Of a DNA stretch of 11,008 nucleotides, positions 7,317 through 11,008 are shown piece after piece. This DNA is from a virus (taxonomy: Duplodnaviria > Heunggongvirae > Uroviricota > Caudoviricetes): IMG/VR virus record IMGVR_UViG_2534681647_000023; one strand, given 5' to 3'. The notes under the pieces are model-generated. The model searched no databases. It was not told the DNA's origin and saw only the letters and a list, made by a program, of their open reading frames with translations. A program made the translations under genes and the position numbers. Numbering within the stretch: the stretch's first letter is position 1; every line of letters begins with the position of its first letter.

Positions 7317-7885
7317 CACTGCTCCGCAATGATTTTGATGGTTGTGGCAGTAAACGCCGCGCCATTCGACTGAATGGTTAACGTGCTGCCATTTGTGGCA
7401 AGAAAGCCGTCTTTATCCACGCTGAAGAACGTAGCTAACAGGATGTTGTCGGTTGTTGTTGCCGAGTTGCGACTGCTTACTAGCGTGTCAGGAACAGAAC
7501 CGGAGAATGTTAGCTGCATTGACCTGTTGGCGGTTCCGCTGGGCCACGTCCCGACAATCGACAGCTTGAAGAACAAGGTTTTGTTCTCGTTGAACACAAC
7601 CATCTTGTTGTTAACGGTGTCGAAGAATGGTGCCAACGTCCCGGATGACGGCGTAAGCGTTTTCAGCAGGCTAACAAGGTTGGTCGGCGCTGTCGGGATG
7701 GTTACTGATACGCCAGAGTAAACAACCTCTGACTTCTTGCGCGTAGTGGCATACTCCAGAGCATTAATGCGCGTTTCATGGTCTGAAACCTGCGATTCCA
7801 GCGACTGAACTCTGGTATCAAGCGATGCAATATCGCTTTCATTCAAGGCAATCAGTGGGTTTACGTCATGGAGTGGGCTCAACAC
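7316..7885 (-). CDS. Tail-needle-like protein (P22 gp26-like coiled coil plus distinct C-terminal domain), probably 5'-truncated
   Basis: Heptad-like N-terminal segment with DHETRINALE resembling the gp26 coiled-coil motif (DHESRI...); Thr/Ser-rich beta-like C-terminus; begins with GTG exactly where the opposite-strand ORF starts. Confidence 0.5.
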   Translation of the reverse strand: MLSPLHDVNPLIALNESDIASLDTRVQSLESQVSDHETRINALEYATTRKKSEVVYSGVSVTIPTAPTNLVSLLKTLTPSSGTLAPFFDTVNNKMVVFNENKTLFFKLSIVGTWPSGTANRSMQLTFSGSVPDTLVSSRNSATTTDNILLATFFSVDKDGFLATNGSTLTIQSNGAAFTATTIKIIAEQ

Positions 7886-8563
7886 CAGTCAGAGCCGCAT
7901 GTACACGCAATAATCATGGTGAACGAAAGAAGCATTAATGGGCAAGCTGGCAAAATTGTCAGCAAATGGGTAACACTGGCAAACAATGCAATCCCATCAA
8001 ATGTTCCTCCCCAGTGGGATCTAGATTTGAAAGGTCAGCAATATTCAGAGCCTACAAAGTGTATAGGTAAACAGATTGATTACATGGCAAAGCCCGAAAC
8101 TAAGTTAAATGACTTTAATAGAGAGGCGAGCAAGAGCCTATATGATTGGTCAGATGCCAACGTTTGGGGTTATTCGAATGGCTGGGCGCGGCATGAGATA
8201 AAAAAAGAAACACTTTCTATCACTGGCTTTCATGCTGTAAGACGCATACTAAAAGCCGTTCAGGCATCAAGGAAAGACAACTACAAAGCTAAGCGACAGA
8301 TACAGCGTACATTGAAACGACAAGACATAAATCGATCACCAATCACCCCGTTCCAAGCACCGTTAATTAGCAAACACGATTGGGATTTATCAGTGATAGC
8401 GGTCACCAAAGAGGCAGAGACAGAGCGCAGGGAATTACTATCCTCACAGATAATAAACTCGAACAAAGTACAAACCCACCCACTGTTAAGGATGTTAAGA
8501 AGAGCACGAGTGAGAGCATCCAGAGCCAAAAGAGAAAGCGGAGGTTATGACCATTACTACTAG
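7868..8563 (+). CDS. YagK/YfjJ-like (inovirus Gp2-type) HUH-motif protein, likely a 5'-truncated remnant with a very basic C-terminus
   Basis: PHVHAIIMVNER resembles the PHYHLVLFLNKD motif of YagK/YfjJ proteins, but only about 10 residues precede it versus about 100 in full-length members (from memory); start overlaps the tail-needle-like gene on the other strand. Confidence 0.45.
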   Translation: MEWAQHQSEPHVHAIIMVNERSINGQAGKIVSKWVTLANNAIPSNVPPQWDLDLKGQQYSEPTKCIGKQIDYMAKPETKLNDFNREASKSLYDWSDANVWGYSNGWARHEIKKETLSITGFHAVRRILKAVQASRKDNYKAKRQIQRTLKRQDINRSPITPFQAPLISKHDWDLSVIAVTKEAETERRELLSSQIINSNKVQTHPLLRMLRRARVRASRAKRESGGYDHYY

Positions 8564-8565
8564 TA

Positions 8566-8775
8566 GTGACAGATCGTGACAAGGCGGTGCAAAAAACGAC
8601 CAATAATAAGAGAGATATGCCTGCCAAACCGCCAAAAGCGCGGAGCGCGGCAAACGCCGCGAGAGGCGCAAGAAGGCGAACCTATCCATTGAAACGGTCA
8701 GAAGCGCATCGCGCTCGACGACCGAAGTCCCCACTAACACCGTTAACGAAAGATCAAAGTCTTAGAAAAAAATGA
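8566..8775 (+). CDS. Low-complexity, highly basic small ORF (possible frameshifted continuation or non-coding)
   Basis: Begins with GTG right after the TAG TAG TGA stop run; internal ATG at 8617; about 35% K/R/P/A; no family recognised. Confidence 0.2.
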   Translation: MTDRDKAVQKTTNNKRDMPAKPPKARSAANAARGARRRTYPLKRSEAHRARRPKSPLTPLTKDQSLRKK

Positions 8776-8857
8776 CGTTTCTTTGATGGACTTCCATCCG
8801 TAAAAATCAAATTTTGAGAAAAAGTACTTATAGAAATTAATCGCTCTATAAGGATAA

Positions 8858-8968
8858 GTTGACGTTAGTTTAAAGTGATAAAACATTAAAGAAAAAACGT
8901 AAAATCAAATACATAAAATAAGTCACCAAGGGATCATTTTCAGAAAACAACGTCAACGTAACGTCAAC
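8858..8968. repeat. AACGTCAAC motif set: direct repeat pair at 8949-8957 and 8960-8968, inverted copy at 8858-8866, separated by phased A-tracts
   Basis: Directly visible; candidate protein-binding sites (operator or iteron-like) in the AT-rich spacer. Confidence 0.4.
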
Positions 8969-9142
8969 TCTGTAAGAACTTTTTTGGTCACTTTTTGGGT
9001 TGAATGTACGTAAAAATCCCCAGCAGTGAAATTTGAGCGCGTAAGCACAATTCTGAGGGGCTTTTTGTCTGTAGGTTAGGCAGTGTAACTAACAATACAA
9101 GAAGTTAGCTCTGACTAACTATTTAATTAACTTTTCAATCTA

Positions 9143-9172
9143 ATTGCGTTAGATATTATACCCTAACGCAAT
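9143..9172. repeat. Perfect 10-bp inverted repeat attgcgttag / ctaacgcaat with 10-nt spacer, within a cluster of alternating CTAAC/GTTAG pentamers (9087-9167)
   Basis: Directly visible; about 60 bp 3' of the stop of the 470-aa gene; followed on the plus strand by atattttta. Confidence 0.5.
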
Positions 9173-9232
9173 ATTTTTAATTCAATAATGTCTGTAAATT
9201 GTTATTACTTATAATTATACATTTAACTATAT

Positions 9233-10645
9233 CTACATTGGCTGCTTCCAATTACTACTTACGTAACGGAATCTCGGATCCTCTGTTTTTGGCTCGGTAT
9301 AATAAGAATCATCAATAGTAAAGTTCGACGCTAATTTATCCCGAAGCCCACCTAAACGTTCAATGCTTGTTAGTTCGTTAGTAACATCCTTGAAAACGGT
9401 AGAAAATGCTTTATGTTGTTTAGACTTCATAAATTCAGGAGTGCTCAGTGCAAACTCTTTATCAGGCAAACCTGGAATACCCACGAGTCCTGTCAATGAA
9501 TTTATACATTTTATCAAAAAACTGCCTTGAATACCTTGATTTGATGGAACACCGTAGCTTCGTTTAATATCTCCAGATATTTTATCTAAATCACTTAGTA
9601 ATTTTGTTACTTTTTTATTTCCTGCACTTATCCCCGATTCATCGTAGGTCACATGAATCTCTCGGATTACATCTCGACACGTACGAAAATGATCATGTGT
9701 TCTAAGCTCTAAAGCTGAATTGATAACTTGAGAGACATTTCCTGTTTCGTTTGCTAGCCATGCAGAAAATATTGGTAAATCTAATGAAATAGTAGATGTG
9801 CGTCCATGATCTACAATTTCAGATCTTGCAGTACTGATTTTATCAGACAACGATTGCACCAACCTTGCAGTATAATCATGACCAAAAGCACCTGTTTTTT
9901 TCATCCAATGCAATTGATATGCATGCCTTATTGGATGAATAAATGAGTCTGCTTTAAAATGCTTAGCAATGACGCTGTAATAAATAGATTTATATGCCAA
10001 CCAATTTAGCGATGCGATAAACATTTCAAGTGAACGAGTCATACCTCCTTTACCGCGAGTAGATTTTTCCCTTTCTAGTTCAAATTCACGCTCAGTATAT
10101 TCATGTCCAGATGAACTCACTAGCTTCACATCGGTTGACCAGTACCCTTTCGTATCAGAAGCATCTGATAATTCATTAAAAATCGATGCACTTAGTTCAC
10201 TATATTTCGCATATTCAGGAGTACCGGGCTGACCAAGCATTTTCATTGTTAAGTAATACACGCTAGACCGAAGATCCCATGTGCAAATCATATTCAGCTT
10301 AAGCATCTCTACAAGTTGCCTAAAATCATCGTCAACAAACTCCCCACCTCTAATTTCGGAAGTAATTTGCCGAGATTCAACTTGTGCTAACTGATCAAGT
10401 TCACTGAGTTGAAAATCACTTTCAGATACAAATTTAATAAAGTCAAATTTAGCAATGCGTTTATCTCTATATTCTTTTTTATAATTATCTACACAGATCA
10501 GGGTATCGTAAAAAAGTATCGCTTGAATAAGATTTTCAAAAGCGACTAAATCTCCGTTAATAGTATCTGGATTCTTAACAAGAATATCACCCAGTGTTCT
10601 TTCGACTGCTGTTAACGAAGCATTATCAATCAACGCATAAGACAT
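9233..10645 (-). CDS. Orphan 470-aa protein of unknown family in a low-GC island; candidate accessory/defence cargo gene
   Basis: Long uninterrupted ORF; strong SD GGAGG 8 nt upstream of ATG 10645; stop TAG at 9233-9235; visibly AT-rich (not computed) in a roughly 50% GC background; flanked by 457 bp and 185 bp of AT-rich non-coding DNA; no recognisable P-loop, RT, HExxH or PD-(D/E)xK motif by eye. Confidence 0.8.
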   Translation of the reverse strand: MSYALIDNASLTAVERTLGDILVKNPDTINGDLVAFENLIQAILFYDTLICVDNYKKEYRDKRIAKFDFIKFVSESDFQLSELDQLAQVESRQITSEIRGGEFVDDDFRQLVEMLKLNMICTWDLRSSVYYLTMKMLGQPGTPEYAKYSELSASIFNELSDASDTKGYWSTDVKLVSSSGHEYTEREFELEREKSTRGKGGMTRSLEMFIASLNWLAYKSIYYSVIAKHFKADSFIHPIRHAYQLHWMKKTGAFGHDYTARLVQSLSDKISTARSEIVDHGRTSTISLDLPIFSAWLANETGNVSQVINSALELRTHDHFRTCRDVIREIHVTYDESGISAGNKKVTKLLSDLDKISGDIKRSYGVPSNQGIQGSFLIKCINSLTGLVGIPGLPDKEFALSTPEFMKSKQHKAFSTVFKDVTNELTSIERLGGLRDKLASNFTIDDSYYTEPKTEDPRFRYVSSNWKQPM

Positions 10646-10659
10646 TAAACTACCTCCAT

Positions 10660-10683
10660 TAGATAATATCTAATAACATTATA
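10660..10683 (-). promoter_or_regulatory. Putative promoter -10 (TATAAT on minus strand, plus coordinates 10678-10683) with overlapping palindrome TAGATAATATCTA (10660-10672) as a candidate operator
   Basis: Perfect TATAAT on the minus strand 33 bp upstream of the ATG; perfect 6-1-6 palindrome between the -10 and the SD. Confidence 0.3.
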
Positions 10684-10790
10684 TTTCAATTAGGTTTAAA
10701 AATTGTGATACTTATGACAGATTTGAGTGACATTTTATCAATCTACTGATTTTGATGGTGAAATTTATTAGAAGGTATGCGTAGTGCTAC

Positions 10791-10823
10791 GGGAGAAATG
10801 AGAAACGCGCCCAGCAATGGCGC
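10791..10823 (-). terminator. Intrinsic terminator candidate downstream of the small minus-strand ORF
   Basis: On the minus strand: GCGCC-attgctg-GGCGC hairpin followed by gtttctcatttctcc; begins 9 nt after the TAA stop of ORF 10832-11008. Confidence 0.4.
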
Positions 10824-10831
10824 ATCCTTTC

Positions 10832-11008
10832 TTAAGCAAGTTGGCTAGTATCTATAGCATCCATCCAATCAGGAGCAATTCCCAAACGTTCCGCGAACTC
10901 TTCATTGGTCACGTCTTCCATTGAGAGACTAGCCAGACAATCGTTAATTTCAGAATAGACGGGGGAAAGTAATAGGTATTCCCGCAACTCTTTCAGGTCT
11001 TTTTCCAT
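10832..11008 (-). CDS. Small acidic ORF (58 aa visible); may extend beyond the window edge
   Basis: Reverse-complement of the window end reads ATG GAA AAA GAC CTG AAA...(MEKDLKELREYLLLSPVYSEINDCLASLSMEDVTNEEFAERLGIAPDWMDAIDTSQLA) then TAA at 10832-10834; not in the ORF track (short, edge). Confidence 0.3.
   Translation of the reverse strand: MEKDLKELREYLLLSPVYSEINDCLASLSMEDVTNEEFAERLGIAPDWMDAIDTSQLA

Follow-up and report, generated by a model that had tools for sequence, protein, structure and literature searches.

What role is played by a long, intact gene that lies among degraded mobile-element remnants and to which no public source assigns a function? This question is raised by the 11,008-nucleotide (nt) DNA stretch IMGVR_UViG_2534681647_000023 (hereafter the window, meaning the whole stretch), in which an open reading frame (ORF) of 470 amino acids (aa) occupies positions 9,233–10,645 of the minus strand. 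The ORF list confirmed it as intact from its ATG start. It corresponds to ECs3238 of Escherichia coli O157:H7 Sakai (NP_311265.1, WP_000119352.1), a member of the phrog_13435 family annotated in that genome as a "hypothetical protein" inside the feature "prophage Sp16; P22-like phage", and every public source treats it as hypothetical or uncharacterized. The original prediction, made by a model from the sequence letters, had proposed an undescribed system made of one gene, placed as cargo and possibly acting against phages. The first part of this proposal is upheld by the analyses below, in which ECs3238 proved to be the sole ORF of an exchangeable segment, to have cassette-borne homologs elsewhere and to lack any conserved partner. 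The second part gains from the alternation of the same slot with GAPS6 and a ThsA-like SIR2 protein, but the defense role still comes from genomic context and is held here tentatively.

One Swappable Slot in a Small argW Element

The limits of the segment carrying ECs3238 were defined by comparing the surrounding backbone with that of strains carrying SIR2, GAPS6, ParA, or two-gene cargo. Since backbone similarity stops at 9,104 at the latest and restarts at 10,766 at the earliest, the O157-specific segment comprises positions 9,105–10,765 (1,661 base pairs, bp), with ECs3238 as its only ORF. These limits nearly coincide with those of the unit shared with Dickeya (blastn 9,130–10,686, with weaker similarity to approximately 10,760). 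The left backbone arm (7,845–9,104, plus strand) contains a decayed gene for a rolling-circle replication protein (Rep), about 94% identical to intact genes, and approximately 225 E. coli genomes that lack ECs3238 have this part of the window at that level of identity. The 231-aa ORF at 7,868–8,563, which had been taken for a YagK/YfjJ-like remnant, matched nothing in Pfam or NCBIfam and is instead what is left of this gene, found intact elsewhere under the name "rolling circle replication-associated protein". The right arm (10,766–11,008, minus strand) consists of a 58-aa ORF (10,832–11,008) followed by a terminator-like hairpin that a terminator scan located (10,827–10,803); both belong to the element backbone, as cross-strain conservation shows. 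The two remnants of the element, at 7,845–9,104 and 10,766–11,008, extend past the window (L001:22033–23656).

The element, intact in approximately 225 other E. coli genomes, is arranged as tyrosine integrase, helix-turn-helix (HTH) genes, Rep, cargo, 58-aa ORF, and serine recombinase, followed by the csc genes, and the tRNA-Arg (CCU) gene argW (3,468–3,542, plus strand; ARAGORN and annotation) is the integration site of the composite island. The backbone recombinase was detected in 550 E. coli genomes, and no description of an argW Rep/recombinase element was found in the literature; this small element with a single swappable slot, spread over approximately 550 E. coli genomes, is previously undescribed. 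In O157:H7 a P22-like remnant (intS, ejection-protein genes, and a needle fragment) has taken the place of its left part, which explains the "Sp16" annotation. Degraded mobile-element modules do stand on both sides of ECs3238, as originally described and as annotation and cross-strain comparison confirm, but the framing of the locus as CP4-57/YfjJ-like has to be replaced by that of a small integrase–Rep–recombinase element fused to a P22-like remnant; it is the Salmonella homolog that lies in a CP4-57-like island.

Five types of cargo occupy the slot, all placed and oriented alike. ECs3238 is present in 317 genomes, the pair GapS6a and GapS6b in 22, a SIR2 protein of 826 aa with an N-terminal match to Thoeris ThsA (E 2e-12) in seven, a two-gene operon encoding hypothetical proteins of 825 and 330 aa in 148, and a ParA-family protein in further strains. 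GAPS6 protects against phages experimentally, and its second protein has a PIN-type RNase domain (bioRxiv 10.1101/2023.03.28.534373). The exchange of ECs3238 with these four alternatives establishes it as a variable cargo of argW islands, in line with the comparison that the original prediction had suggested. Its likeness to GAPS6 and the SIR2 protein is one of slot and orientation, each cargo having the Rep gene on one side and the 58-aa ORF plus recombinase on the other. Both are unrelated to ECs3238, and GAPS6 needs two genes; the resemblance is of location and not of ancestry. The 825/330-aa operon, which has no PADLOC match, is a second defense candidate, as yet putative, and is located at L053:7518–10984 in E. 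coli strain 50579417. The P2/P4 satellite hotspots of Rousset et al. 2022 reportedly combine a conserved backbone with one position of alternating unrelated defense cargos; the argW element is like them in cargo alternation, but it is not P4-like by annotated gene content.

The annotation of the locus also invites the reading that ECs3238 is a gene of the P22-like prophage Sp16, such as a moron or a superinfection-exclusion gene, given that it lies inside the Sp16 feature, beside remnants of P22-type ejection and needle genes, and that it belongs to a PHROG. We regard this as very improbable. The gene stands in the backbone of a Rep–cargo–recombinase element that is free of P22-like genes in the approximately 225 E. 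coli genomes mentioned above, its homologs elsewhere sit in integrons and islands rather than in prophages, no homolog was found by tblastn in 50,697 phage genomes, and no structural match appeared among viral proteins.

An Intact Gene under Purifying Selection

ECs3238 stands in a low-GC island, as had been proposed: the guanine–cytosine (GC) content is approximately 35% in the ORF itself and 0.30–0.40 over 8,800–10,800, compared with approximately 0.45–0.52 in most of the window. At an identity of at least 99% the gene was found in 317 of 5,426 complete E. coli genomes, always on the chromosome and in O157:H7 or O55:H7, with an identical copy in 316 genomes of these serotypes. Every complete O157:H7/O55:H7 genome that was matched has the gene, at a single locus. 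The window itself derives from E. coli O157:H7, and the 2.2 kilobases (kb) surrounding the gene are 100% identical in many O157:H7 genomes. Rare disruptions were observed in this lineage, namely in MA11, where IS1203 has inserted into the 2.2-kb region, and in O55:H7 DEC5B, whose copy spans only 79% of the gene.

In comparison with the Dickeya, Salmonella, and Vibrio copies, the ratio of nonsynonymous to synonymous substitution rates (dN/dS) was 0.07–0.10, a sequence-level indication that the ORF at 9,233–10,645 is real, intact, and under strong purifying selection. Because this ratio coincides with a conserved ribosome-binding site (RBS) and with regulated transcription in Sakai, we consider ECs3238 a real, functional gene. 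The transcriptional evidence comes from a microarray study of Sakai, in which ECs3238 expression rose 11.8-fold in spinach root exudate and fell 2.3-fold in lettuce cell-wall extract (PMC4940412); this is the one paper in which ECs3238 was found to be mentioned, and no paper on WP_000119352.1 was found in the literature.

The RBS, GGAGG (10,653–10,657, minus strand), was read directly 7 nt 5′ of the ATG and is kept as GGAGG, GGAGA, or AGAGG in the Dickeya, Salmonella, Vibrio, and Shewanella copies, so that the strong RBS originally described is confirmed, also in relatives. The plausible promoter that had been described along with it was not recovered: a consensus scan called no sigma-70-like promoter upstream on the strand of the gene, and the region contained five promoter-like sites against 8.2 in shuffles. 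A candidate −10-like hexamer, TATAAT (10,683–10,678, minus strand), has counterparts in Dickeya and Salmonella (GATAAT and GACAAT, respectively) and went uncalled because no good −35 accompanies it. Of the claimed palindromic operator, the palindrome stands: a repeat search found the perfect inverted repeat ATTAGATA-T-TATCTAAT at 10,658–10,674, abutting the RBS. It is not conserved in the Dickeya or Salmonella copies, however, which leaves an operator role without comparative support, and the palindrome is probably incidental to the gene.

The encoded protein is soluble, of approximately 54 kDa, and comes from a small, tightly conserved, and undescribed family. In an alignment of 69 diverse members, invariant residues of the helical remainder (the part beyond the N-terminal domain considered below) include W123, P238, R240, P291, and R324. 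The C-terminal tail, S-x-W-K-x-P-M (window codons 9,233–9,253), is conserved to the last residue, with S464 and W466 each kept in 52 of the 69 members and M470 invariant in a closer set. Such conservation suggests that the tail is functional, with autoinhibition, an oligomer contact, or a degradation signal as candidate roles.

Distribution and Distinctness of the Family

The claim that ECs3238 is an orphan was sustained in part. Neither Pfam nor NCBIfam contains a match to its sequence, PADLOC models do not recognize it, and none of the 69 diverse members matches any Pfam family consistently. On the other hand, the protein aligns end to end with phrog_13435 of PHROGs v4 (E 7.5e-264, residues 1–470 against profile positions 1–472 of 472); 233 homologs were found in a collection of 5.8 billion proteins, and 315 clusters at 50% identity were found among 1.84 billion representatives, all unnamed. 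Since phrog_13435 has neither function nor category, this membership adds no mechanism, and no member of the family appeared in the deposited phage genomes searched with tblastn. Lengths are approximately 455–485 aa in all 315 clusters, with no domain fusion.

The hosts are scattered over Enterobacterales, Vibrio, Shewanella, Alteromonas, Aeromonas, Pseudomonas, Nitrosomonas, Chromobacterium, Syntrophales, Geobacter, Verrucomicrobia, and Abditibacterium. The E. coli protein is 85% identical to that of Dickeya and 82% identical to that of Vibrio, which points to recent horizontal transfer, and the GC content of the gene is 36–40% in all seven hosts compared. Plasmids rarely carry the family (4 of 72,556): three of the carriers are Pseudomonas aeruginosa megaplasmids of approximately 500 kb, in which the match is split in two places per record, and the fourth is a Clostridium kluyveri plasmid with a full-length copy, 34% identical and the only Firmicutes member seen.

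Structural comparison gave no relative either. Searches of Pfam, NCBIfam, PADLOC, PHROGs, and PDB sequences that used the single sequence, two full-length profiles, and an N-terminal profile turned up phrog_13435 and nothing else. Two structure models were built, the first of which came from a shallow alignment and was poor (predicted local distance difference test, pLDDT, of 60) and the second of which was good; Foldseek with the model of ECs3238 found nothing in PDB or BFVD (E > 0.07). The family is likewise not described in defense libraries or in papers on integron-borne defense. The family is undescribed, outside defense libraries, Pfam, solved structures, and papers, and its predicted fold has no significant neighbor in PDB or BFVD.

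We then considered whether the protein acts with a partner. Clustering covered every ORF of 70 aa or more in the 10 kb on either side of the gene (32 loci) and every ORF of 30 aa or more in the 1.5 kb on either side (35 loci). No conserved partner, large or small, emerged across these 32–35 loci, the ECs3238 homolog being the only gene common to all. The 58-aa ORF upstream of ECs3238 has no counterpart beside any other family member; it was rejected as a partner, being part of the element backbone and kept beside the SIR2 and two-gene cargos as well. ECs3238 is a self-contained, horizontally mobile one-gene module.

Integron Cassettes in Other Genera

The mode of mobility is apparent in several other genera. 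In Vibrio vulnificus, a homolog lies in a 21-kb run of small same-strand genes with more than 30 attC-type repeats between them, and at locus L036 two attC copies (approximately 9,848–9,978 and 11,428–11,558 of that locus) bracket the homolog at 10,001–11,413, which is the sole ORF between them. In Stutzerimonas, the homolog is the second cassette after a divergent integrase (496 bits on the integron integrase model TIGR02249, cut-off 265), and a complete attC hairpin can be folded from the site 3′ of the stop codon. A positional screen for TATAAC…GCGTTAT(G/A) sites with closed outer pairing, situated 3–18 nt after the stop codon, returned eight loci from seven genera (Alteromonas, Halioxenophilus, Nitrosomonas with two loci, Syntrophales, Ectothiorhodospira, Vibrio, and Stutzerimonas), against a chance expectation of approximately 0.3 hits derived from the whole-locus background. 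Only this positional result was used, since a looser scan of whole loci was unspecific, giving several hits per 20 kb in non-integron DNA. Directly upstream of the homolog, both Nitrosomonas loci carry a truncated integron integrase. The occurrence of a single ORF with its attC site, in arrays and next to integrases, indicates at the level of sequence that genomes acquire this family in the form of an integron gene cassette.

No integron surrounds the E. coli copy, and no intact attC was found 3′ of the gene, where only fragmentary core-like motifs occur, including an ATAACAA…GCGTTAG pair that is only 47 nt long. A hairpin with a 10-bp stem, ATTGCGTTAG-N10-CTAACGCAAT, lies at 9,143–9,172, 61 nt 3′ of the stop codon, and is shared with the Dickeya copy; with this hairpin and the palindrome upstream, both inverted repeats that had been noted in the flanks are real. 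Having neither a T-run nor the full attC architecture, the hairpin may represent either a stem of terminator type or what is left of a degraded attC. On the 5′ side, the alignment places GTTAT (10,677–10,673, minus strand), approximately 32 nt before the ATG, in register with the GCGTTAT|AAC of the preceding attC in the Vibrio and Shewanella copies, and it may be what remains of the 5′ junction of the cassette, where the R′ core of an attC before it would lie. GTTAT and the 3′ hairpin are suggestive of cassette relics in E. coli, the GTTAT match amounting to 5 nt only. In Enterobacterales the gene travels as a 1.6-kb unit that no longer has its attC, and the locus offers a clean natural example of one gene moving between integron arrays and a non-integron slot.

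An alternative is that ECs3238 serves its mobile carrier rather than the host, in maintenance or addiction, as a regulator of excision or replication, or in counter-defense. Its position between a Rep gene and a serine recombinase in E. coli, and the adjacency of homologs to integron integrases in Nitrosomonas and Stutzerimonas, would fit this idea. We nonetheless judge it improbable: the carriers are wholly different (integrons, a CP4-57-like island, Pseudomonas islands, solitary insertions, and plasmids) and have no element gene in common, the cargos with which ECs3238 is exchangeable in the E. coli slot, GAPS6 and SIR2, are host-protective, and no antitoxin-like partner was found among the loci clustered.

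Genomic Neighborhoods and the Case for Defense

Gene-neighborhood analysis of the homologs revealed a recurrent linkage to recognized defense genes. At one Pseudomonas locus (L014), a complete Hachiman system lies directly upstream of the homolog (HamA E 8e-276, HamB E 1.6e-250), and at three others (L008, L029, and L031) ORFs of both Hachiman clusters are found 0.5–5 kb from it. A PDC-S06 AAA_13 ATPase adjoins the homolog at L019, and a 650-aa PIN_8 protein is its convergent neighbor in three loci. The Salmonella copy lies in its CP4-57-like island with AbiGi and a trio of TerB_N, BrxD-like ATPase, and DEAD helicase genes; a P. fluorescens island with a homolog carries AbiTii, and a Vibrio array with a homolog includes a Lit-type Peptidase_U49. 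An LmuB-like SMC ATPase and a 1,321-aa DUF4365 protein recur near the homolog in five loci. Around the homolog at the Pseudomonas loci L007, L008, L013, L015, and L023, the DUF4365 protein is encoded directly upstream, the 958-aa LmuB-like ATPase is divergent, and a convergent gene encodes a protein of 719–762 aa with a terminal SEC-C motif; these three proteins may form an undescribed Lamassu-like island.

Solitary insertions were also observed, beside recBCD, gyrB, metH, pheA, AcrB, or TonB receptors. In Aeromonas hydrophila (L043–L046), for example, the homolog at 10,001–11,356 lies 104 nt 3′ of recD on the same strand as recC-recB-recD. The association with defense genes is, among the loci examined, frequent but not universal.

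Because its slot alternates with GAPS6 and SIR2, because homologs keep company with defense genes, and because the gene is mobile as a cassette, we favor the reading that ECs3238 is a single-protein anti-phage system, defending either directly or through abortive infection; on the evidence of genomic context we would place its probability somewhat below even. The precedent for this reading is Cosus (Brc24), an integron cassette made up of a single PIN_12 gene, which is active against T7 and whose homologs also occur outside integrons, with and without attC, including in Escherichia (Kieffer et al., bioRxiv 10.1101/2024.07.02.601719). The two families are alike in that one gene is the whole system, in their carriage as integron cassettes, and in occupying the same three kinds of location. 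Cosus relies on an N-terminal Asp/Thr motif (T12, D14, and D96), and the ECs3238 family has an invariant D7 followed by near-invariant N8, T10, and T12. They differ in that no sequence relationship is detectable (no member of the ECs3238 family matches PF16289 or PF18476, and hhalign against a PIN_8/PIN_12 profile gave 0.2%), and that Cosus has a demonstrated anti-T7 phenotype.

Several observations weigh against a defense role. In approximately half of the lineages the gene stands alone among housekeeping genes, and integron cassettes in general encode many non-defense functions. None of the 5,027 models of PADLOC v2.0.0 matches ECs3238 at E ≤ 1. No published phage-resistance or toxicity phenotype was found for any family member, and a published study that screened V. 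vulnificus cassettes as a library, in a strain whose carriage of the gene is unestablished, reported no such protein. Among the five cargo types of the argW slot, GAPS6 alone is a validated defense system, with the SIR2 domain-level match second. The nuclease mechanism proposed in the next section has points of its own against it, given there.

The main rival reading is a mobile accessory gene unrelated to phages, collected by integrons and slots and serving, for example, to adapt its host to a niche or to stress, to act against plasmids, or to compete with other bacteria. Such a gene would be at home in the integron arrays around the homologs, which hold acetyltransferases, toxin–antitoxin pairs, barstar, and pyocin/immunity genes, and among the housekeeping genes that surround many copies; the response of ECs3238 to root exudate in Sakai and the lack of any matching defense model would also be accommodated. 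It is opposed by the abundance of recognized defense genes in the E. coli slot and in several Pseudomonas, Salmonella, and Vibrio neighborhoods, and by the lack of any transporter, metabolic-enzyme, or regulator domain in the protein. Constant low GC content, a patchy distribution, and near-identical length are, in our experience, typical of conflict genes, and the family has all three. We consider an accessory role of this kind unlikely, although it is the most serious competitor of the anti-phage reading.

A Speculative Nuclease Mechanism

If ECs3238 alone confers anti-phage defense, directly or through abortive infection, its N-terminal alpha/beta domain (approximately residues 1–140) might be a metal-dependent nuclease of PIN-like type, which the helical remainder would hold inactive until an infection cue is sensed. 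This gated nuclease is speculative and starts from the conservation of acidic residues: in the N-terminal domain, D7 and D32 are present in 69 of 69 members, position 37 is Glu in 66 and Asp in three, and the domain also carries R16 and R63. At the candidates for the later canonical PIN acidic positions, however, conservation is partial (D105 acidic in 65% and D124 in 78% of the 69 members). PIN families of Pfam match none of the 69 full-length proteins or 41 N-terminal domains, even at E ≤ 10, and hhalign probabilities were 0.2–0.5% both against VapC, used as one sequence and as a shallow profile of 24 sequences, and against a diverse PIN_8/PIN_12 profile. The PIN ribonucleases of the VapC type (PDB 1w8i, 7by2, 2fe1, 5wz4, and 3tnd) are also of approximately 130 aa and paired with an antitoxin, whereas ECs3238 has 470 aa and is partnerless; Foldseek did not recover a match to them, and the third and fourth acidic positions are partly conserved. 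With both Foldseek and the profiles negative, the PIN idea for the N-terminal domain is weak.

A different effector, a HEPN-domain RNase, had been hinted at on account of several R-x(4-6)-H spacings. These spacings do exist in the E. coli protein (RHAYQLH, RSEIVDH, and RDVIREIH), and R240 and R324 are invariant, but the family does not conserve the histidines of the motif (H241 is kept in 28 and H246 in 18 of the 69 members); the HEPN candidate was rejected on these grounds and can be credited with hardly any probability.

Implications for O157:H7

A bolder version of the anti-phage reading, which we regard as doubtful, sees in ECs3238 the founder of a new class of single-protein immunity against phages, whose fold lacks any significant structural relative and whose effector chemistry may be new. 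In this version the class is spread over at least five phyla as an integron cassette and is fixed in the O157:H7/O55:H7 lineage. Were the new class real, ECs3238 could shape which phages, including Stx-converting ones, are able to infect O157:H7/O55:H7 pathogens. The locus lies beside a site of Stx2a phage integration, and a defense effector there could, if the reading is true, affect the phage–host range of enterohemorrhagic E. coli. As a defense effector of any class, it would add to the bacterial immune repertoire a compact 1.4-kb one-gene system with an unrecognized fold. Single-gene defense cargo of hotspots and integrons is already well known, and specialists face thousands of such candidates; ECs3238 is a good candidate for experiments: the gene is short, it belongs to a major pathogen in which its native context is clear, and the mutants to make are obvious.

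Other Features of the Window

Two further parts of the window deserve mention. The 378-aa ORF at 5,036–6,172 (minus strand), annotated as "phage DNA ejection protein", looks chimeric, with a P22 gp20-like N-terminal part and a strongly hydrophobic C-terminal part, as if a membrane-protein fragment had been fused to it; the GC content drops to 0.28 over 5,001–5,400. Positions 1–3,347, immediately left of argW, represent the terminal part of a lambdoid prophage, with genes of the MT-A70 methyltransferase, DUF1627, and HTH types and an integrase at 2,103–3,347, so that two integrases flank the tRNA gene; this prophage is absent from the same site in Sakai. The argW site is a topic of papers on stx2a and prophages in O157. 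Within it, the DUF1627-type ORF at 1,481–1,858 (plus strand) contains a perfect tandem repeat encoding PVQ four times (SVQPVQPVQPVQPVQ).

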